The notes under the pieces: model-generated
Told to the model about the DNA's origin: nothing
Seen by the model: only the letters and a program-made list of their open reading frames with translations
Database searches by the model: none
Shown here: positions 1 to 55,334 of the stretch, in pieces
Numbering within the stretch: the stretch's first letter is position 1
Layout of the letters: the number at the start of each line of letters is the position of its first letter
Position numbers and translations under genes: made by a program
Source of the DNA: a virus
Lineage: Duplodnaviria; Heunggongvirae; Uroviricota; Caudoviricetes
Virus record (IMG/VR): IMGVR_UViG_2737471838_000004
Span: 1-55,334 of that record
Length of the DNA: 55,334 nt
Direction: 5' to 3' (one strand)

Positions 1-1446
1 ATGAGTATGTCATCCATACCGTCGTCCTCCCAATCCGGGAAGCTCTATGGCTGGGTCGAAAGAATTGGTAACAAGGTTCCCCATCCTTTTTTGCTCTTTA
101 TCTATTTGATAATCGTACTCATGGTGACGACGGCAATTTTGTCAGCCTTTGGCGTCAGTGCGAAAAACCCGACCGATGGTACGCCGGTGGTGGTGAAAAA
201 CCTGCTCAGTGTGGAAGGATTACACTGGTTTTTACCCAATGTGATTAAAAACTTTAGCGGTTTTGCTCCACTTGGAGCGATCCTGGCGCTGGTTTTAGGT
301 GCCGGCCTAGCGGAGCGCGTCGGCTTACTGCCAGCGCTAATGGTTAAAATGGCATCGCATGTTAATGCCCGCTACGCCAGTTATATGGTGCTGTTTATTG
401 CTTTTTTCAGCCACATTTCTTCCGATGCGGCGTTAGTGATCATGCCACCGATGGGTGCGCTGATTTTTCTGGCGGTGGGCAGGCATCCAGTTGCAGGTTT
501 ACTGGCTGCCATTGCAGGCGTAGGTTGCGGCTTTACGGCTAATTTACTGATTGTCACAACCGACGTGTTGCTGTCGGGGATCAGCACGGAAGCGGCGGCT
601 GCGTTCAATCCGCAAATGCACGTCAGTGTAATTGATAACTGGTATTTTATGGCCAGCTCCGTAGTCGTACTGACGATTGTTGGCGGCCTGATAACCGACA
701 AAATCATCGAGCCACGATTAGGTCAATGGCAGGGAAACAGCGATGAGAAACTGCAGACATTGACCGAAAGTCAGCGTTTTGGTTTACGCATAGCAGGTGT
801 CGTATCGCTACTTTTTATTGCTGCGATCGCGCTGATGGTGATCCCGGAAAACGGGATATTGCGCGATCCGATTAATCACACCGTGATGCCATCACCCTTT
901 ATTAAAGGTATCGTGCCACTGATCATTCTTTTTTTCTTTGTTGTCTCGCTGGCTTATGGCATCGCTACCCGCACAATTCGACGTCAGGCGGATTTACCGC
1001 ATTTAATGATTGAACCGATGAAAGAGATGGCGGGATTTATCGTGATGGTTTTTCCCCTCGCCCAATTTGTCGCCATGTTTAACTGGAGCAACATGGGGAA
1101 ATTCATCGCCGTGGGGCTGACCGATATACTTGAAAGTTCAGGGCTTAGCGGCATCCCGGCGTTTGTCGGTCTGGCGTTGCTTTCCTCTTTCTTATGCATG
1201 TTTATTGCCAGCGGTTCCGCAATCTGGTCGATTCTGGCCCCCATTTTCGTACCAATGTTTATGCTACTTGGCTTTCACCCGGCATTTGCGCAAATCCTCT
1301 TTCGTATTGCCGACTCATCCGTATTGCCTTTAGCGCCGGTATCTCCTTTTGTTCCACTGTTTCTTGGATTCCTGCAACGCTACAAACCAGACGCAAAACT
1401 GGGTACTTACTATTCGTTAGTCTTGCCCTATCCGCTTATCTTTTGA
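1..1446 (+). CDS. abgT: AbgT-family p-aminobenzoyl-glutamate transporter (host gene; 481-aa ORF ending at the prophage edge)
   Basis: ORF track 1..1446; N-terminus MSMSSIPSSSQSGKLYGWVERIGNKVPHPF and a multi-TM hydrophobic profile typical of the AbgT/YdaH family; lies outside the phage module. Confidence 0.8.
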   Translation: MSMSSIPSSSQSGKLYGWVERIGNKVPHPFLLFIYLIIVLMVTTAILSAFGVSAKNPTDGTPVVVKNLLSVEGLHWFLPNVIKNFSGFAPLGAILALVLGAGLAERVGLLPALMVKMASHVNARYASYMVLFIAFFSHISSDAALVIMPPMGALIFLAVGRHPVAGLLAAIAGVGCGFTANLLIVTTDVLLSGISTEAAAAFNPQMHVSVIDNWYFMASSVVVLTIVGGLITDKIIEPRLGQWQGNSDEKLQTLTESQRFGLRIAGVVSLLFIAAIALMVIPENGILRDPINHTVMPSPFIKGIVPLIILFFFVVSLAYGIATRTIRRQADLPHLMIEPMKEMAGFIVMVFPLAQFVAMFNWSNMGKFIAVGLTDILESSGLSGIPAFVGLALLSSFLCMFIASGSAIWSILAPIFVPMFMLLGFHPAFAQILFRIADSSVLPLAPVSPFVPLFLGFLQRYKPDAKLGTYYSLVLPYPLIF

Positions 1447-1595: not shown

Positions 1596-4091
1596 TTATT
1601 CTTCGCTTTCGGTCAACTGCCGGACAAGCTCTTCAAGTTTTGTGATCCGTTCATCCATAACGGCAATGTTAGCTCGTAGGCTGGCATTCTCCTCTTCCAG
1701 TTCGGTGACGCGCTTGTCTGTTTCGCGTGCCACCTGGACAAGTAAACCAGTCACCGCAGCGTAGTCAACATTGAGGTAACGCGTTTCCTCGCGTAGCTCG
1801 TTGCCGTCAGTGGTTGGGCCTTGTAACGCTTCACCGTAATGAGTAAACGATCCAACAGCCTCCGGTAGCGCCTCCATAACCTCCTGAGCGATAACGCCAG
1901 CGTAAGGCAGGCCGTTTTCCTTAAGGGTATAGGTGTACCCGTTCATTTTGCGGATTGCTTCAGTTGCATCACCTATAACCTGAATGTTGTCTTTCAGGTC
2001 GCGATCAGATGATTGGTTTACTGCTACGCACGTAACGTTTCCAGACGCTTTAATGTTTGTCACATCAAGTCTGTCGTTTGCGAAACTATATGCAATTGCG
2101 TTACTAACGCTTCCGGCATTATCATAATCGCGCTTCTGAATAAACCAGTTGCCAGCATTAGCAGCGAGAGTATAAGTAGGTGTGTTTGCAGGGCGATCTG
2201 TTTCATCAAATCTTATTGCAGGGGTAACACTATTTATTTGTAAAGGTTTTTCAATCGTTGATTTAAGTATCGCACTGTCAACAAGCAAATTACCTTCTGA
2301 GGTAAGATTTATGTATCTAGTAGTGCTATTTGAACCACCGCATGTAAACCTTATTGTTAGTCGACCTTGCTCATTTGGGTAGGTCTGAACATACATATCA
2401 CCAGCAAGGCGCACAGTGTTATCACTTGCTAACAGTCTAGTATGTAGCATCCCGCTACTAGTGTAGTTGCTAGTAGAATCACTAGTTTTGTCGAGAAACA
2501 TACTATCAAGCTGTGGACTGTTACTTCTACCCAATCCTAGATTAGTCCTGGCATTATCAAGGCTTGTCGTACCAGTGCCGCCTTGCGCTACGCTTAATGG
2601 AACCCATCCAGATCCGTTATGGCAACCCCACAATCCAGATGTTGACACCTGAAGGCGTGGCGCATCTGATAAATATTTCGAATAAACGTAAGTGGTGGAT
2701 TCGCCTTCTTCAACTCTTTCTGTTAATGCTATTTTTTTCCATGCGCTCCAACCTTGCTCGCCATAAGACCTTCTATAAATAATTGCCATATTGTTAAACA
2801 AATAATAGGTCTGTATGCACCCCTCAGAATCTCCTGCGCCAGTTTTTTGCACCAACAATGACCCTGCGATCCGTATAGGGTAATTTAATTCAGGTTTTGC
2901 GTTTGCTGATGATACTTGATGATAAAAGCCTGATGCGCTTCCTTTTAAGTCATCAAGATTCTGGCTATCGCTAAGGGTAGTTTTTGCATCATGCATAACC
3001 ATTAGGTTTTTTCTGGCTTCTGCTGCGTTTCCAGCACCAGTGCCGCCATACATAACGCCTAACTTAATCGCCCCGCCGTTTGAATAAGCACCCCACCCAG
3101 TGTTATTAACGAAGATATAATTTTTCTTTTCTCCGTCCCACAACTGAGTTTCTTTTGCAGTGTTACTAACCTGAAGCAAGCGATCTACTTCATCTTTTCT
3201 TGCGTGTCGTAACCATTGCGGGCCTGTTGATTCACTCCATTTATAAGTGTAAGCACTGCCAGTTATCTTACCTATAAAAAGGCCAGCAAATTCTGGTACG
3301 CCGCCCAAAGTAGGGCAAATAAAGCCAGATAAATAGCGCTCACCTGAAGCAATAGAAGGCCACCCGGTAGCAGCACCTTCCATGATGCGCAGAAAGCCAA
3401 TATAACCTGATGGGTTTCCTGAAATATCTGGGCAATCTCGAGGATTTGTGGAAAGACCTATGTTGGATCCGGTAATGGCCTGAGCCTGGTTGCGATAGTT
3501 TAGCGCATCGGCTGCTGCTTTTGCCGCATTCGTTTCGCTGGTGGCTGCCGCTGTTTTGCTGTTGCTGGATGCTGTTTCGCTGGCTTTTGCTGCATCCTGT
3601 GACGCTTTTGCCGCTGTGGCTGAGTTTGCTGCCGCCGTCTTTGATGCAGCCGCCGCGTTTTTGTCTGATTCTGTTTTTTGAGCGTTGGCGGTTGATTTCG
3701 CCGTTTCTGTGCGAATGTCGGCAAGAAGCTGCTTCATCTGACCATCACCGCCGAACTCATTCCACCATTCAACGGCAGCGGCAATCTCTGTTTCCTTGCC
3801 CTGGTAGTAACGCAGCGTTTCGGCTACGTCCTGAGCAAGCCCATCAACTGAGATCGAGTCAGATAGCAGAATACTAAATTTTGTTCCCGCAGGGATTGCA
3901 GGGTTAGCCGCTGGCGTCACTGACAATTCAGTACCGCTTTTAATTTCTGTAATGGTAAAGATCTGCACCGGATTGCCGATTGCAATAAGCGTGCACCCTA
4001 CACGGATGAGAGAAAGAGGCGCGGAAAAGTTTGTTCCCGTGCCTGTAACTGTGTTGCCATTGATGGCAATTGTTCCAGTTGTGTAAATCAT
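1596..4091 (-). CDS. stf: side tail fibre protein with C-terminal intramolecular-chaperone (peptidase S74-like) domain
   Basis: 831-aa ORF; lambda Stf-like N-terminus, long Ala/Ser/Thr-rich repeat region (AAKAS/TAAA), C-terminal DLKDNIQ...GYTYTLKENG...AQEV block typical of self-cleaving tail-fibre chaperone domains, ending in a coiled coil. Confidence 0.8.
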   Translation of the reverse strand: MIYTTGTIAINGNTVTGTGTNFSAPLSLIRVGCTLIAIGNPVQIFTITEIKSGTELSVTPAANPAIPAGTKFSILLSDSISVDGLAQDVAETLRYYQGKETEIAAAVEWWNEFGGDGQMKQLLADIRTETAKSTANAQKTESDKNAAAASKTAAANSATAAKASQDAAKASETASSNSKTAAATSETNAAKAAADALNYRNQAQAITGSNIGLSTNPRDCPDISGNPSGYIGFLRIMEGAATGWPSIASGERYLSGFICPTLGGVPEFAGLFIGKITGSAYTYKWSESTGPQWLRHARKDEVDRLLQVSNTAKETQLWDGEKKNYIFVNNTGWGAYSNGGAIKLGVMYGGTGAGNAAEARKNLMVMHDAKTTLSDSQNLDDLKGSASGFYHQVSSANAKPELNYPIRIAGSLLVQKTGAGDSEGCIQTYYLFNNMAIIYRRSYGEQGWSAWKKIALTERVEEGESTTYVYSKYLSDAPRLQVSTSGLWGCHNGSGWVPLSVAQGGTGTTSLDNARTNLGLGRSNSPQLDSMFLDKTSDSTSNYTSSGMLHTRLLASDNTVRLAGDMYVQTYPNEQGRLTIRFTCGGSNSTTRYINLTSEGNLLVDSAILKSTIEKPLQINSVTPAIRFDETDRPANTPTYTLAANAGNWFIQKRDYDNAGSVSNAIAYSFANDRLDVTNIKASGNVTCVAVNQSSDRDLKDNIQVIGDATEAIRKMNGYTYTLKENGLPYAGVIAQEVMEALPEAVGSFTHYGEALQGPTTDGNELREETRYLNVDYAAVTGLLVQVARETDKRVTELEEENASLRANIAVMDERITKLEELVRQLTESEE

Positions 4092-4267
4092 CGCAATGAC
4101 TCCATTATGTTAATTAACGGAATAATTCTACCATTTTGTGATCTATGTTGCATTTTATGCTTACACAAAATGTTTTGTTGATTTATATCAATATACAAAA
4201 TGTGGTTTTGTCGGATATTTAAGCCACCGGATAAACCGGATGAACCAACAAGAATGAGGATTCAAAA

Positions 4268-4516
4268 ATGAAAAACATGTTCAAAGTGGTATTATTCGCT
4301 GCGGCTGTTGCTCTTACTGGTTGCGCTGTTGACAAAGATGCTGCATTGCACAACCTGCCAAATAGCGGAGTGATTCCGCAAGAAATTGTCTATGATGCTA
4401 ATGGTCATCTTGTCTATGACACTGAAAAACTTCCGTATACTGGACAATGGTGTCATGAACTCGATCACAACATGCGCCGCATCGGTAGCCCGTCGAATTG
4501 TGTAGCTAACTACTAA
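4268..4516 (+). CDS. small secreted lipoprotein (moron, opposite strand to tail genes)
   Basis: 82 aa; signal peptide MKNMFKVVLFAAAVALTGC with lipobox LTGC; AGGA RBS; own terminator; located between J and stf. Confidence 0.6.
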   Translation: MKNMFKVVLFAAAVALTGCAVDKDAALHNLPNSGVIPQEIVYDANGHLVYDTEKLPYTGQWCHELDHNMRRIGSPSNCVANY

Positions 4517-4520
4517 AAGA

Positions 4521-4550
4521 AAACCCCGCGCGAAGCGGGGTTATTTTTTA
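4521..4550. terminator. bidirectional rho-independent terminator (ends lipoprotein gene on + and J on -)
   Basis: stem CCCCGC/GCGGGG with GCGAA loop, T-tract TTATTTTTT on +, A-run upstream giving T-tract on -; J stop codon lies in the T-tract. Confidence 0.6.
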
Positions 4551-7500
4551 TGACCAAGAACCAGAACTCCTTGTAACAAGCGCAAGTCCAGCCCTTCTTT
4601 CTGTACCTGTACTGGTGTTGGTGTATTCTTCTGTTATTGTTATGGTTACTTTTTGCGCCGTGATCCCTGTGACGCAATGTGATACCGTAAATCCAAATTG
4701 AGGCGTAGATGCCGCCCTCACGACTGAATATGTTTTACTATTTCCATTAATGTTTATTGTCACTTTTATGGTTGTTGACTGAGAATACTGATAGTAAGTC
4801 AGGTGATAAGGAATCATCACAAAAACGGTTTTAGAAAGCGAACTCGAAGACGAATCTGTATAAGTTTTAGTAACAGAACGCGATGCACTGTCCGACTGGT
4901 TAGGGAATGATGCTTGAGGTATAAAGTTAGTTGACGCGACATCGCCTACAAAACTTGTAGCCTCTAGCGACCCTTTAAATTTACCGCTATTTGCATACAC
5001 CGCCCCCCTTACCGTTACGTTGTTAAGCTCCGCGCTACCGTTTTTATTAATCATCCAGCCAGCCGAACCGGCTTTATAGTTGGTTGACTGTATTTGCTGT
5101 GCAATTTTAGCTGTAGTGATTGCTGCATCTGCAATTTTAGCCGTTCCTATTGATGCGTTTTTAATAAACGCTTCGCGCACATACATTGCACCATTTGTAA
5201 CATAGAAAGGTGTCGTATATGTGCCGTTTGCCGCCGTCATTAGCACAAAACGGTCAACAAGGAAAATGCATTGTGATTGTGTGCTACTTCCCGATCCGGT
5301 CATACCTAACGAAATCCCGGACGCATACTTCATGCCGTTATTGTCAGTAGCGATCTTAATGCTCCACGTTGCCGACATATCTGTTTCAATACCGGCAATT
5401 GCGGTTTTGTTTTCCTCGATTGATACCGATTGCCCGTCGATTGAGGCCGTGATACTTTCGATCTGCGTGGCGGTTGATTCCTTGTAAGATGTAAACGCTT
5501 CGCCCCACTCCGTGATCGATGCTTCGTTTGCTTCCAGTGATGCGCTAATCTCCGCAAACTGTGTAGCGTTGGCCTTTTCGTGGGTAGCAAGTGCCGTTTG
5601 CATTTCGGTAATGGCTGCCGACACATCATCATCGATTTGGGCTTGCAATTGCTCCAGTTTCTGCGCGGTCGCCTCCTTCTCTGTAGCAATAACTGAATCA
5701 ATGCGCTCAATTTCTGCTTTCGTTTCCGCTTTCTGGCTCTTATATTGCGCCGTTAACGATGTGCGGGTTCTGGCGTTAGCTAATGAGTTATTCATAAGCG
5801 CAATGGCTGCGTTTTGCAGGCTGGCGCGGGTCTGCATTAGCTCGTTTTCCTGCTCCGTCAATTCTACGCTGATTTCGTTAATCTGGCTTTCGTGCTCCCC
5901 AATTCCGTCCTCATTGTTTTTTATACGTTCTTCCAGATCGGCGGTTGATTCCTTCAGGTCGGTAATAGTCTGGTTCATTTCTTCCACGTCACCCATTAAA
6001 CCTCCTGTTACTTCGTCCATGGAGTCCTTGATCATGTTCTGGAATTGTTCGCTTTCCATAACTTCATTCAGCACGGCATCCGTGATTTCTTCGAAGTTTT
6101 CGGAAGGTTTACCGCTGGCTTCGATAAAGTCAGATACACCGAAAGCGTTTTTTGTGCGCACGTAAACGTAATACGTGTGCCCCGTTGCCATCCCGCCGAA
6201 GGTCCATTGATACCCGCGCCCGGTGAATTGCGCTGATGTGGTTACTTTGGATGGATCTGTGATCTGATTTTCCCCTGAGTAGTAGAACTCGTATGCTGTA
6301 TCAGTGGTTAGGGTTGTTTTGCTGATCGGGTACACCGTTGCCTGAAAAACACCAGGCACCCAATTAACGCCGACGGGGGCCGCTGGCGCACCAATAACCA
6401 GATCCACAATACTTTCTGCGCCCTTCATGCCAGTGTCATTACGACCGCGAATACCAAGCGTGTAGCTGCCTGCGTCGAGGCCATAAAATTCATAGCGGTA
6501 ATTCGTGGTTTCATAACTTGCCACCACGCGACCGTCTGCATTATATACGCGGATTTCAAAGGTAAGACGATGCGTTGTTGTCTGTGTTTCCCATGTTGCG
6601 CGGCATTGAACCGTTTCAGAACCAGCGTTTAACACTTTCAGATTTTCAATGTTAGGTACGCGGAAGTGATTAAGCGTGTCGTTGTTGATTTCGAAGACTG
6701 CGCCTTCATCAACTACGGCCTGTTTGTTAGGGTCGTGCTGTGCGGCTTCGATAGTGTATACGCTGTTATTTTCTGTTTCCGCTACGCTGGTGATCCTACA
6801 TAAAACGGGTTTTGCTGCTTCAGTCGATACAGCAAAAACAGTGCCATTGCGAATCCATGCCGGGGCCGCAGCAAGGGTAATATTGTTTCCGTTAATTCCG
6901 GTGATCTGGTGTTTTTTAAATTTACCATCGTTATCAAGTAATCTGATGGTGTCACCAGCCGCGATATATTCAGAATCAACCTTATCGACCGTTATCACTT
7001 TGCCATTGTTCGCCACGATACGACCGCCCAAACGAGCACCAGCGCGGTTATTGTCGAGGATCTCGATAATATCCCCAGGGGTGAAGTGAATGGCGTCACG
7101 GGCCATTTTAAACGTAAATTTCGACGGCTCGCGTTTTGCTGTTTCGATCAGCCATTTACCAGCGCGGTAAGCCTGTCCGCGAGAAGTACAGCCGAACGCC
7201 TCCAGCGTGGTTTCGTTGTAGCCGTCGCGGGCGATCAGTTCATCGTCAGAGACATACTCTTTTGACTGTTCCCAACCGTTACCCGGATCAGTCCAGGATA
7301 CAATCACGGCGTTGTAGCACTCAGCGCGGGCAAGGCTCGAACGGGTGAATACACCATCTACGACATTTGCGTTCGTGATAGTTGCAATCGGATCTTGTGG
7401 CGCATCAATCATCACTGTAAGACGTTGCCCATCCCATAACGCAATACCACGGAACATGCCAGCTATATTATCAAGTAAGTCGCGGGCGCTCATTTGCTCT

Positions 7501-8504
7501 GTGATGTAAGCGTTAAGCGTCATGCGAGGCTCTTTCCCACCGTAGCCATCATCAACCAACTGATCGCAATATTGTGAAAGCGTGTATAAAGCGCCATCGT
7601 CAACATCAATATAACCAGCCTGTCGAGCAAGGCCGAAACGGTCGTTTTTGATCAGGTAGCGGAACAACCACGCGGGGTTATTGGTGTACGCCTTTTTAAA
7701 GCCACCCAGCCATAAACCGGAATAAGTGCGCTTTTCCGGGTCGTAGTTATCAGGAATATCAACAATCAGTCCGCGAAGGTGATAGGTGCGGGTGGGCGTG
7801 TCAGTGTACTGATCATGATCAATCACCACTCCAGCTACAGCGGTGTGAGGATAAGACAAATTATCGTCGATGATTTCGCTGTAACTGCTCCACCGTGTAT
7901 CATTGCTAAGTAGATCGCTGTTGCTGTCTGCCGTTACTCGGCGAACGCGAATATCAAACGGCTTTTCATCCGGCGCGTTGATAATGTGAGCTTCCAAGTA
8001 TTCACCGCTCTGTTTACCAGGCCCGATGGTAATATCCTTAACCAGCGTCCACGTAGATGATGATGATGGCTTAACATCAACCATTAACATAACTGACGTG
8101 TTGTATTGATTGCCCATATCATCTGACTGAACGAGAGCGTCAACGCCAACATTTAATCTGACGCGGGTCACGTTCGGATCTGATACCGTCCTGACCAGTG
8201 GGGTGTCATGCGTTACTTTTGCGTTGACAATAACGGTTGATTCAATGGCGTTGAAGCCGTTGATTGGTGATTGATCAGCCGTACCATTACGCCATGCCAC
8301 GCTAACACCAGGGACTGATGTGTTTCCGCTTGCGTCAGTGATGGGAGTGTCATTAAGCATCACGCTGTTTAATGGAGCGGTTTGATTGACGCAGCCAAAA
8401 ATTGGACCTTCACTTAGAATATCCAGAACCCGATAAAATTGTTTGTGATACAAATTATCATTAATCAAGGTAGGTGTTTTCGCCTTACCGCCACCACTAG
8501 ACAT
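4548..8504 (-). CDS. J: host specificity / central tail fibre protein J
   Basis: ORF 4548..8543; start moved to the internal ATG (MSSGGGKAKTP) preceded by GGAGG; lambda gpJ-like N-terminal and central regions plus a long coiled-coil segment and divergent C-terminal domain. Confidence 0.85.
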   Translation of the reverse strand: MSSGGGKAKTPTLINDNLYHKQFYRVLDILSEGPIFGCVNQTAPLNSVMLNDTPITDASGNTSVPGVSVAWRNGTADQSPINGFNAIESTVIVNAKVTHDTPLVRTVSDPNVTRVRLNVGVDALVQSDDMGNQYNTSVMLMVDVKPSSSSTWTLVKDITIGPGKQSGEYLEAHIINAPDEKPFDIRVRRVTADSNSDLLSNDTRWSSYSEIIDDNLSYPHTAVAGVVIDHDQYTDTPTRTYHLRGLIVDIPDNYDPEKRTYSGLWLGGFKKAYTNNPAWLFRYLIKNDRFGLARQAGYIDVDDGALYTLSQYCDQLVDDGYGGKEPRMTLNAYITEQMSARDLLDNIAGMFRGIALWDGQRLTVMIDAPQDPIATITNANVVDGVFTRSSLARAECYNAVIVSWTDPGNGWEQSKEYVSDDELIARDGYNETTLEAFGCTSRGQAYRAGKWLIETAKREPSKFTFKMARDAIHFTPGDIIEILDNNRAGARLGGRIVANNGKVITVDKVDSEYIAAGDTIRLLDNDGKFKKHQITGINGNNITLAAAPAWIRNGTVFAVSTEAAKPVLCRITSVAETENNSVYTIEAAQHDPNKQAVVDEGAVFEINNDTLNHFRVPNIENLKVLNAGSETVQCRATWETQTTTHRLTFEIRVYNADGRVVASYETTNYRYEFYGLDAGSYTLGIRGRNDTGMKGAESIVDLVIGAPAAPVGVNWVPGVFQATVYPISKTTLTTDTAYEFYYSGENQITDPSKVTTSAQFTGRGYQWTFGGMATGHTYYVYVRTKNAFGVSDFIEASGKPSENFEEITDAVLNEVMESEQFQNMIKDSMDEVTGGLMGDVEEMNQTITDLKESTADLEERIKNNEDGIGEHESQINEISVELTEQENELMQTRASLQNAAIALMNNSLANARTRTSLTAQYKSQKAETKAEIERIDSVIATEKEATAQKLEQLQAQIDDDVSAAITEMQTALATHEKANATQFAEISASLEANEASITEWGEAFTSYKESTATQIESITASIDGQSVSIEENKTAIAGIETDMSATWSIKIATDNNGMKYASGISLGMTGSGSSTQSQCIFLVDRFVLMTAANGTYTTPFYVTNGAMYVREAFIKNASIGTAKIADAAITTAKIAQQIQSTNYKAGSAGWMINKNGSAELNNVTVRGAVYANSGKFKGSLEATSFVGDVASTNFIPQASFPNQSDSASRSVTKTYTDSSSSSLSKTVFVMIPYHLTYYQYSQSTTIKVTININGNSKTYSVVRAASTPQFGFTVSHCVTGITAQKVTITITEEYTNTSTGTERRAGLALVTRSSGSWS

Positions 8505-9063
8505 ATAGACCTCCAGTTTCGTGTAATTTCGTGTAACCGGCACCAGCTTTGTTTAGCTCTTCAATCATAAACGACCGCCACGCAACGGCGGCGTTAATCG
8601 CCATCTCGAGACCGCCCCACGACATAACGCTAAATGATTTGCTAATTCTTTTAGCGTTATCAGTGGTAATGCGTGCTCTAATAGATCTACCTTCTGCGTG
8701 CCAACACACTCCAAAAGGCAAGCCGTTAAACCTTATTGAACGACCTACAGTCATGTTTCTGGCGTTGCCTTTTTTATCTGTTACGCGTATGTTGTTGAAT
8801 TTATTGTTAAGCCCATTACCATCAATGTGATCTATGATTTCACCGCGTTTTAATTTTCTGCCGCTGCATAATTCGAAAACAATCCGGTGTGCATAATAGC
8901 GGCGGCCCTTCCATGTAATTTTCCAATACTTATTGCCGCTTTTTGCTGCTACTATTTTCCCCGCTGCGTCGCCCGCCCGTGCCGTTCTGCTGTTAGCGGT
9001 GACCTTCCACCTTAAACATGAAGGCGAATCCTCATCATAAACAAACAATTCAGACCAGTTCAC
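8497..9063 (-). CDS. HNH homing-endonuclease-like protein (HNH + AP2-like domain) inserted between tail genes I and J
   Basis: 188 aa; YAHRIVFE...GEIIDHIDGNGLNN...NIR motif pattern of HNH_3/AP2 endonucleases; paralogous to three other ORFs in the window. Confidence 0.7.
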   Translation of the reverse strand: MNWSELFVYDEDSPSCLRWKVTANSRTARAGDAAGKIVAAKSGNKYWKITWKGRRYYAHRIVFELCSGRKLKRGEIIDHIDGNGLNNKFNNIRVTDKKGNARNMTVGRSIRFNGLPFGVCWHAEGRSIRARITTDNAKRISKSFSVMSWGGLEMAINAAVAWRSFMIEELNKAGAGYTKLHETGGLYV

Positions 9064-9076
9064 TTTAACCCTCCTG

Positions 9077-9607
9077 TTAACTTACAACGTCTAGGGCGTC
9101 TTTATTATTGGTTGTGTCAATACCCAAGGAACCAACATTCGAACCTATTTTCATTTCACCCAACAGGATCGGCACTGGTCTACCCTGGCCAACCTTGTTT
9201 TCAACGCTGGTGTATGTGTTGTTAGATATGGTGTTATCTTGTGCGCTTTCTGCTGATGTTTTTATCTTCATATTGCGTGACATGAAGATCGAGAACGCAA
9301 CGCTGACAACCGAAACACCGATCAAAATCCAGCCTACAACGCCAATCCCTGCAATACCGCCTTCCACCACTGGCGCAACAATGACGGTAGTTCCGTCCGG
9401 GTATTTACTGTTAACCGCTGCGGGCGCGGTCTTTTCGTTATAATCTTTTCCGGCAATCCTCAGGCGCAATGGGGTACTTAAAAACGCCTTTTTGAACTCA
9501 TGATTCTGCGCAACCAGTAAGTTAAGCCCTTGCGCTGGCGTATCAACGCTTAAACACACCTTGCCGTAATATCTTCGAAGATTGCCCGTAAATCTAAATT
9601 TGAGCAT
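9077..9607 (-). CDS. I: tail assembly protein I
   Basis: 176 aa; position after K; hydrophobic central segment and C-terminal LLGEMKIGSNV similar to lambda gpI (LYGEMRVGSRV). Confidence 0.7.
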   Translation of the reverse strand: MLKFRFTGNLRRYYGKVCLSVDTPAQGLNLLVAQNHEFKKAFLSTPLRLRIAGKDYNEKTAPAAVNSKYPDGTTVIVAPVVEGGIAGIGVVGWILIGVSVVSVAFSIFMSRNMKIKTSAESAQDNTISNNTYTSVENKVGQGRPVPILLGEMKIGSNVGSLGIDTTNNKDALDVVS

Positions 9608-54265: not shown

Positions 54266-54483
54266 TGGATAAGATCGGCACAATACTTATTAATCGCGAG
54301 CAAGTGCAAAAAATGTTAGGCGGGCTTAGTAAGTCCGCCTTTTTTAAGCTCGTTAAAAAATGGAAAGATGCGGGAACTCCTTTCCCTGAACCTGTTAAGG
54401 GGATGCCAGCATTAAAGCGCGGCGGATCTCTTTACCGTTATCAGGATGTTATTTCATTTTGTAAATCAATGGGCTTCATGTAG
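54265..54483 (+). CDS. putative excisionase / AlpA-like HTH regulator
   Basis: 72 aa; small HTH protein convergent with and overlapping the integrase 3' end. Confidence 0.45.
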   Translation: MDKIGTILINREQVQKMLGGLSKSAFFKLVKKWKDAGTPFPEPVKGMPALKRGGSLYRYQDVISFCKSMGFM

Positions 54484-55334
54484 TAATCAGCCAGTTTATT
54501 CATCGCCTCTATTTGCTCCTTCACGTAATCATACTGATCATATATAGCCATCATTCCCGCCAGTTTATGACCTAAAACCTTTTCTGCTACGTGCGGCGCA
54601 ATGCCAAGCGCTGAAAGGTTTGTCCTTACAGTGCGGCGCAAGTCGTGACACGACCACGGCTCGCCGCCCATCCTTAGCATCAAATCCCTTGCGGCTGTTT
54701 TCGGCACGCTCCTGTCTACCGCTTCATCCCTTCCAGAAAGCACGGGAACGAAGATAAAATTAAAGCCGTGCAAATCCATAGCTTCACGCAATAAATCAAC
54801 GCTAACGTCGGATAAACCGCGCTTAAACTCATTTCTGTTCTTACTCAATGCACCCGGCACGGTCCACACGCAGTTATCAAGATCGAAATGTTCGCGCCTT
54901 GCGTTTGTTAGTTCGCTTGTTCTGCATCCGGTGAATATAATCAGCTTCATCAATATCTGATTTAGCCGCGCCATTTTTGAACTGTCTATAATGCTGATTA
55001 GATGGTGAATCTCTTGTATTGATAAGACGCGTTTCCTTTGCGCCGGGTTTTTGCCTACGTCTTTCACGCGTAGCAATGATATGTCGTCACGCTCCACGCG
55101 GCGGCGGCGCATGGCATATTTTATAACCGCCTTCATCCTGTTTAAGACTATCCCGGCCTGAACGGGCGCGCCACCATTAGCTACCTTTCTAAAAATTCCC
55201 TCCCACATCATAGCGTCCATATCATCGACTATATAGCCACCGTATGGTTTTATGACGTGCTTATCTAGCATGGCCTCAACCTGCTTATAATTGACCATGT
55301 TCCTTGCCTGCGGCGATTCCATGTACTCACTCAC
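54441..55334 (-). CDS. int: tyrosine integrase (C-terminal 297 aa; N-terminus beyond window end)
   Basis: catalytic region HDLRRT...LGHK...Y at C-terminus; ORF runs off the right edge. Confidence 0.85.
   Translation of the reverse strand: MSEYMESPQARNMVNYKQVEAMLDKHVIKPYGGYIVDDMDAMMWEGIFRKVANGGAPVQAGIVLNRMKAVIKYAMRRRRVERDDISLLRVKDVGKNPAQRKRVLSIQEIHHLISIIDSSKMARLNQILMKLIIFTGCRTSELTNARREHFDLDNCVWTVPGALSKNRNEFKRGLSDVSVDLLREAMDLHGFNFIFVPVLSGRDEAVDRSVPKTAARDLMLRMGGEPWSCHDLRRTVRTNLSALGIAPHVAEKVLGHKLAGMMAIYDQYDYVKEQIEAMNKLADYYMKPIDLQNEITS

Follow-up and report, generated by a model that had tools for sequence, protein, structure and literature searches.

The lipoprotein gene and its surroundings

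An 82-codon open reading frame at 4268..4516 of the + strand encodes MKNMFKVVLFAAAVALTGCAVDKDAALHNLPNSGVIPQEIVYDANGHLVYDTEKLPYTGQWCHELDHNMRRIGSPSNCVANY, an 82-aa lipoprotein precursor that is the orthologue of the type-C Lpp (Lpp010) of the mEpimmI phages. The precursor reads MKNMFKVVLFAAAVALTGC followed by AVDK..., with the lipobox LTG-C19, of which the four residues L16-T17-G18-C19 (nt 4313-4324) come directly after MKNMFKVVLFAAAVA and fit the pattern [LVI][ASTVI][GAS]C. The signal peptide (4268-4321, + strand) has lysines at positions 2 and 6 (K2 and K6) in its n-region and the stretch VVLFAAAVA as its h-region, and the mature 63-aa lipoprotein is encoded by 4322-4513 (+ strand). Two conserved cysteines are found in the mature part, Cys62 (4451-4453, + strand) and Cys78 (4499-4501, + strand); in an alignment of 25 family members C19 and C78 are invariant and C62 is near-invariant. 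The protein matches PHROG 12984 ('lipoprotein') with E=3.1e-27, residues 7-82 being aligned to profile positions 5-77 of 77, and the dN/dS values between six mEpimmI alleles of the gene are 0.03-0.14. Because of the PHROG match, the invariant C19, and the dN/dS in this range, 4268..4516 is a real gene and no chance ORF. A Shine-Dalgarno sequence, GAGGA (4256-4260, + strand), is located 7 nt before the ATG and is invariant in six mEpimmI phages. The AlphaFold2 model of the lipoprotein, calculated from the 25-sequence alignment, is poor (mean pLDDT of 61.5, pTM of 0.33); it lends no structural support to a function, and fold matches to such a model would carry no meaning.

The window (the whole stretch of 55,334 nucleotides analyzed here) is, judged from its sequence, an integrated prophage of the mEpimmI group, since host abgT is found at the left, a phage integrase at the right, and the DNA is 85-93% identical to mEpimmI phages. 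This group consists of Nus-dependent, non-lambdoid temperate coliphages (Negrete-Mendez et al. 2025, PMC11893012). The abgT gene (AbgT transporter, 1..1446, + strand; Pfam ABG_transport, E=3e-197) borders directly on the end of the prophage, and phage homology begins at ~1468-1497. The integrase gene (54441..55334, − strand) is incomplete at the window edge, so the other attachment site is outside the window. The region 1468-25000 shows 85-93% identity to mEp554, mEp044, mEp010, and MagusPhagus, and 89% to mEp021, mEp515, and mEp013. The gene order, stf, lpp, and J, is that of the mEpimmI phages, with lpp on the opposite strand within the structural cluster.

The side tail fibre gene (stf, 1596..4091, − strand) encodes 831 aa with PHROG tail-fibre matches and a C-terminal Peptidase_S74 intramolecular chaperone domain. 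On the other side of the lipoprotein gene is the J-like tail tip or central tail fibre gene (4548..8543, − strand), which matches Pfam Phage_Tail_Tip, FNIII-A_GpJ, Ig_J, and Phage-tail_3 as well as phrog_31, and which shows 78% identity to J of mEp010 over the N-terminal ~1000 aa, from residue 14 onwards. The mechanically called J ORF starts with GTG at 8543, while the MSSGGGK start of the relatives corresponds to ATG at 8504, which from the sequence is likely the true start. J has ~1318 aa here versus 1478-1828 aa in the relatives, owing to a different central repeat region. An HNH endonuclease ORF (8497..9063, − strand; 188 aa; Pfam HNH_3 at E=1e-10, phrog_99 at E=7.5e-34) separates J from tail assembly gene I (9077..9607), two genes that are only 13-14 nt apart in mEp010 and MagusPhagus. 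The ORF resembles a homing-endonuclease insertion that is particular to this prophage.

The original prediction had described an 82-aa protein with a classical lipoprotein signal peptide and an LTGC lipobox, preceded by its own ribosome-binding site, and placed beside the tail genes against their orientation. The signal peptide and the length are seen in the translated ORF, the ribosome-binding site is the GAGGA 7 nt 5' of the ATG, and both J and the side tail fibre gene are on the − strand.

The lipoprotein gene and J converge on a bidirectional intrinsic terminator (4522..4549, both strands), a hairpin AACCCCGC-GCGAA-GCGGGGTT with T-runs on both strands. The hairpin itself (4522-4542) has a stem of 8 bp, 6 of them G-C pairs, followed by ATTTTTT. 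This T-run overlaps the J stop codon (4548-4550), and the convergent stop codons of the two genes are 31 nt apart. The same hairpin is annotated as a terminator in the mEp records. A terminator of its own had been proposed for the lipoprotein gene; the hairpin does stand 3' of the gene, but it is common to the convergent J and not private to the lipoprotein, because on the minus strand it reads as the J terminator. Two Rfam matches in the region, taken as candidates for a non-coding RNA, were rejected, as their scores fall far short of the gathering thresholds and stem from the terminator hairpin.

The 176-nt intergenic region between stf and lpp (4092-4267) is 97% conserved in six mEpimmI phages. 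With a lenient scan, a candidate sigma-70 promoter of the lipoprotein gene was found at 4192..4219 (+ strand; TATACA-16-GATATT, 8/12 matches), which is weak and of low confidence; a stricter promoter scan gave no + strand site upstream of the gene. A strong sigma-70 promoter (TTGACT-16-TATATT, 10/12 matches) precedes the Seuratvirus homologues. Two inverted repeats are present in the same region, ACAAAA-TG-TTTTGT (4165-4178) and ACAAAA-TGTGG-TTTTGT (4195-4211). The former overlaps a minus-strand promoter-like sequence, TCAACA-18-TAAAAT (4181..4152), located 5' of the side tail fibre gene, and the latter fills the spacer of the weak + strand candidate promoter. From their sequence and position, the two repeats may be operator sites. 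The small upstream ORFs of the mEp records (38-42 aa, called by phanotate) were considered spurious; the corresponding frames are 23-39 aa here and show no RBS.

The opposite-strand placement had been taken to point to expression from the prophage. This is a weak argument, as strictly virulent Seuratvirus and Dhillonvirus phages share the convergent layout. In mEp021 the counter-oriented unit also encodes gp80, annotated as a virion structural protein, and from this annotation it follows that the unit oriented against J would be expressed in the lytic growth of that phage.

Family distribution and the J tip

The lipoprotein was found by tblastn in 44 phage records, which belong to the mEpimmI group, to the virulent Seuratvirus, Nonagvirus, and Dhillonvirus, and to some Salmonella, Cronobacter, and Enterobacter phages. 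Outside mEpimmI the homologues show 54-62% overall identity and a strongly conserved C-terminal block, DTEKLPxTGQWCHExDHxxRRIGSPSNCV. In the phage records inspected, the gene is located 30-40 nt past the J end, on the other strand; the Salmonella homologue P0012 is likewise convergent with the J gene, with a 31-nt gap. In E. coli, the gene is present in ~12 of the 5426 complete genomes. The family is small and isolated, with 27 clusters at 90% identity, and an exhaustive profile search of 1.84 billion representative proteins gave three true family representatives and no remote relatives. A 4467-aa repeat protein returned by the profile search is an artefact of nine 3-bit matches.

Two homologues are found in other surroundings. 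P0025 (positions 3293-3511 of locus L011 and 2212-2430 of L012) has 72 aa, is 59% identical, and shows no canonical lipobox (…IALCCTAFANT…); its gene is placed amid small same-strand genes and not beside J. This protein may represent a variant that is soluble in the periplasm and belongs to a different phage context. The gene of P0004 (5001-5252 of L013, from a metagenome), whose product is 81% identical, is convergent with genes for 154 aa and 1566 aa, neither with recorded Pfam hits, and does not directly follow a recognisable J.

The C-terminal 120 aa of J (4551..4910, − strand) are the presumed receptor-binding tip. In full alignments of the last 250 aa, the J tip of the window is 41-52% identical to those of the four tested LamB-dependent mEp phages, while shorter alignments of the first ~160 of these residues reach 64-66%. 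The last ~90 aa are a different variant from that of the tested mEp phages, and they are 95% identical to MagusPhagus. This window-type tip is 38-47% identical to the Seuratvirus and Dhillonvirus tips, namely 43-44% to those of Bas21, Bas23, Bas24, Seurat, and CAjan, and 38-41% to those of Dhillonvirus, e.g. EP23. Bas22 has a tip of the mEp010 type.

The lipoprotein gene and the tip are closely linked. Each of the 32 phage records whose J tip is of the window type is among the 44 that encode the lipoprotein, and the gene is always located ~40 nt beyond the J end, on the other strand. The same tip is present in 4 of the 5426 complete E. coli genomes (70-94% identity), and the lipoprotein gene adjoins it in 4/4. 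Within the BASEL collection the lipoprotein gene is carried only by Bas21, Bas22, Bas23, and Bas24, and LamB is the terminal receptor of exactly these four small siphoviruses (BASEL S5 Table). It is reasonable to infer, from tip sequences, that the prophage studied here uses LamB, since both tip types are tied to this receptor (43-44% identity to Bas21, Bas23, and Bas24 in the case of the window-type tip).

The two partners change at different rates. The lipoprotein gene is conserved at 93-97% (nucleotide level), whereas the adjacent J tip diverges far faster. In the N1286 prophage of E. coli the identity is 96.7% over 4100-4556 (the intergenic region and the lipoprotein gene) and 71% over the J tip, and the sharp drop marks a mosaic boundary at the common terminator, 4522-4550.

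The orthologue Lpp010 and related systems

The lipoprotein is 93% identical, over 82/82 residues, to Lpp010, which is gp116 of mEp010 and was described as a 'type-C' lipoprotein by Negrete-Mendez et al. (Front Microbiol 2025, PMC11893012). Its identity to the type-C alleles of mEp010, mEp013, mEp044, and mEp554 is 90-93%, and to that of MagusPhagus 96%. Six substitutions separate it from Lpp010: M4V in the signal peptide, and D24E, E39D, I40V, A44G, and N45S. The latter five, all of them in the mature part, are conservative exchanges, and the last 37 residues (46-82) are identical. The two genes also agree in their lipobox, common terminator, and phage group, and in their position, with J on one side, the side tail fibre gene on the other, and both of these on the opposite strand. 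Unlike in mEp010, the neighboring J tip is another variant (41-46% identity over the last 250 aa), the one shared with MagusPhagus.

When expressed from a plasmid with the IPTG-inducible Ptac promoter, Lpp010 excludes mEp010, mEp044, mEp554, and, unexpectedly, lambda, all of them LamB-dependent, as scored by plating; mEp013, also LamB-dependent, escapes (PMC11893012). The OmpA-dependent mEp021 and mEp515 are not listed among the phages excluded by Lpp010, and these two are excluded by a type-A lipoprotein (PMC11893012). The gene, the family, and the exclusion phenotype are therefore already known, having been published in 2025 and predicted in 2021-2022. The prediction concerned putative exclusion lipoproteins downstream of gpJ in LamB-dependent phages (Maffei et al. 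2021, PMC8594841; van den Berg et al. 2022, PMC9586334), and according to the latter paper, phages that target LamB, for instance Bas23, 'likely do have SE lipoproteins' at this place. A literature search for LamB-directed exclusion lipoproteins gave none beyond the work cited here.

The homologues to which the 2021-2022 prediction applies belong to Seuratvirus, Nonagvirus, and Dhillonvirus (Bas21-Bas24, CAjan, Seurat, 9g, EP23). They share PHROG 12984 and the convergent position ~30-40 nt after J with the lipoprotein of the window, and are 56-58% identical to it overall and 69-77% over the C-terminal 52-53 residues. They differ in that they come from virulent phages, have a shorter and different N-terminal mature part, and are assigned their function by prediction.

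No Pfam family was matched at E<=0.1, NCBIfam and PADLOC gave nothing useful (the NCBIfam matches covered the signal peptide only), and a profile search of PDB chains gave nothing relevant at E<=10, with chance matches only.

The Cor proteins of T1, phi80, N15, HK022, and the lambdoid mEp phages are small outer-membrane lipoproteins that are encoded in the tail/host-range region and directed against FhuA. The lipoprotein of the window resembles them as a lipoprotein encoded in the tail/host-range region of a siphophage and excluding phages that use the same receptor (shown for the orthologue). Homology to Cor was rejected, as at E<=0.1 neither a PHROG annotated as Cor nor any Pfam family was matched. 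The original prediction of a Cor-type receptor-blocking or superinfection-exclusion factor is thus borne out as regards function, given that the 93% identical Lpp010 excludes LamB-dependent phages; by sequence the protein belongs to neither the Cor nor the Llp family, and the receptor concerned is LamB rather than FhuA.

In the case of T5 Llp, the similarity is in the small size (~60 aa in the mature form) and in the position of the gene beside that of the receptor-binding protein. Llp has an internal disulfide and its own promoter, and blocks FhuA from the periplasmic side; its complex with FhuA has been solved (PMC9586334). Unlike LamB, which has no plug, the target of Llp is a TonB-dependent transporter, FhuA, and Llp acts via the plug and folds extracellular loops of FhuA inward. 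No homology to Llp can be claimed, as hhalign aligns the signal peptide only (20 columns, residues 1-23, probability 67%).

The type-A Lpp (gp81 of mEp021 and mEp515) is similar in its locus between J and the tail fibre gene, its counter-orientation, and its receptor-matched exclusion. There is no homology, since BLASTP gives no alignment at E<=100. In mEp021 (1627-2780 of L015) this unrelated 72-aa lipoprotein is followed by gp80 on the same strand (co-transcribed). Lambda Bor or Lom, or an Rz1-type spanin, was also considered and rejected: there is no Pfam match, and the locus is between J and the side tail fibre gene, not in the lysis region.

Proposed receptor blocking and its alternatives

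The reading that we regard as quite probable is that the gene product is an outer-membrane lipoprotein for superinfection exclusion, a type-C Lpp matched to the receptor, which makes LamB unusable. The 82-aa precursor would be exported by the Sec pathway, lipidated at Cys19, and cleaved by signal peptidase II. The residue at position +2 is Ala, not Asp. Alanine at this position is no Lol-avoidance signal, and the Lol system would sort the protein to the inner leaflet of the outer membrane. In the mature 63-aa protein Cys62 and Cys78 probably form a disulfide in the periplasm, by analogy, because the two cysteines of T5 Llp do so (PMC9586334). The lipoprotein would then associate with the LamB maltoporin and render it unusable as the terminal receptor for J-type tips, so that LamB-dependent siphophages, namely lambda and most mEpimmI relatives, would be unable to infect. 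The gene and the receptor-binding end of J would travel as one convergent module around their common terminator. Within this scheme, it is the outer-membrane location, the disulfide, the direct binding of LamB, the block at the adsorption step, and the expression from this prophage that we infer.

An action on LamB is indicated by the exclusion spectrum of Lpp010, which tracks the receptor, the OmpA-dependent siblings not being listed as excluded. For this orthologue it can be argued that receptor use, not phage lineage, sets the specificity, because lambda is excluded despite a J tip only 19-27% identical to the mEp tips. The growth of the LamB-dependent mEp013 on Lpp010 cells argues that LamB is not removed but stays in the membrane, modified or masked. 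LamB has no plug and no known allostery, and the Llp mechanism is not simply transferable to it (PMC9586334).

The same observations bear on the alternatives. Exclusion could act after adsorption, with LamB binding intact and the insertion of the tail tube or the periplasmic passage of DNA blocked. A precedent is Ltp of Streptococcus phage TP-J34, a lipoprotein that excludes after adsorption via the tape measure protein. A post-adsorption step is compatible with the published phenotype, which was scored by plating only (PMC11893012), with a receptor that offers neither plug nor known allostery to a periplasmic ligand (PMC9586334), and with mEp013, which uses LamB yet escapes, so that a determinant on the phage side matters. 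We nevertheless consider it unlikely, since the spectrum tracks the receptor across unrelated phages, lambda being excluded, while the OmpA-dependent mEp021 and mEp515 share tail genes with the excluded phages and yet are not listed as such. The strict linkage of the gene to the receptor-binding end of J in four lineages, whose other tail genes differ, also speaks against it.

An indirect effect, in which over-production of a lipoprotein from the plasmid causes envelope stress and less LamB, would be an artefact of expression. It draws on the IPTG-inducible Ptac plasmid used for Lpp010 (PMC11893012) and on the natural upstream region, which here has only a weak promoter-like site. This explanation appears very improbable: there is functional LamB, given that mEp013 plates on the Lpp010 cells; the type-A lipoprotein in the same vector gives a different, OmpA-matched spectrum; and the dN/dS of 0.03-0.14, together with the linkage to LamB-type J tips across lineages, points to a specific function. 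As for a host-directed role, such as lysogenic conversion (serum resistance or adhesion, like lambda Bor) or an outer-membrane spanin, with exclusion as an incidental effect, a small prophage lipoprotein on the strand opposite the late genes is what might be expected. It is nonetheless the least probable of the explanations considered, as there is no Pfam, NCBIfam, or PADLOC family match, and so none to Bor, Lom, or a spanin; the gene is neither in nor near a lysis cassette, nor embedded in an Rz-like gene; and strictly virulent phages, for which there is no lysogen to convert, carry the same gene.

With LamB blocking as the preferred reading, it is uncertain whether the lipoprotein excludes the virions of its own prophage, because mEp013 evades Lpp010 and the J tip here differs from those of the excluded phages. 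That exclusion is one-sided, i.e. competitors are kept out and the phage's own virions are not, and that LamB is also blocked by a mechanism unlike that of Llp, is a combination which we think rather doubtful. If the exclusion is one-sided, the lipoprotein would shut out lambda-like and mEp010-like competitors, and the locus would reflect an ongoing race of escape and exclusion, a reading based on the conserved lipoprotein, the diverging J tip, and the evasion of Lpp010 by mEp013. If the mechanism is not that of Llp, e.g. plugging of the channel from the periplasm or exposure at the surface, the protein would be a structurally new receptor blocker.

In practical terms, the annotation of the gene as a LamB-matched superinfection-exclusion lipoprotein of the Lpp010 type can be given with confidence. 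Among exclusion lipoproteins, its family is the first with a demonstrated effect on LamB-dependent phages, including lambda, and lysogens that carry it should resist LamB-dependent phages used in therapy or in the laboratory.
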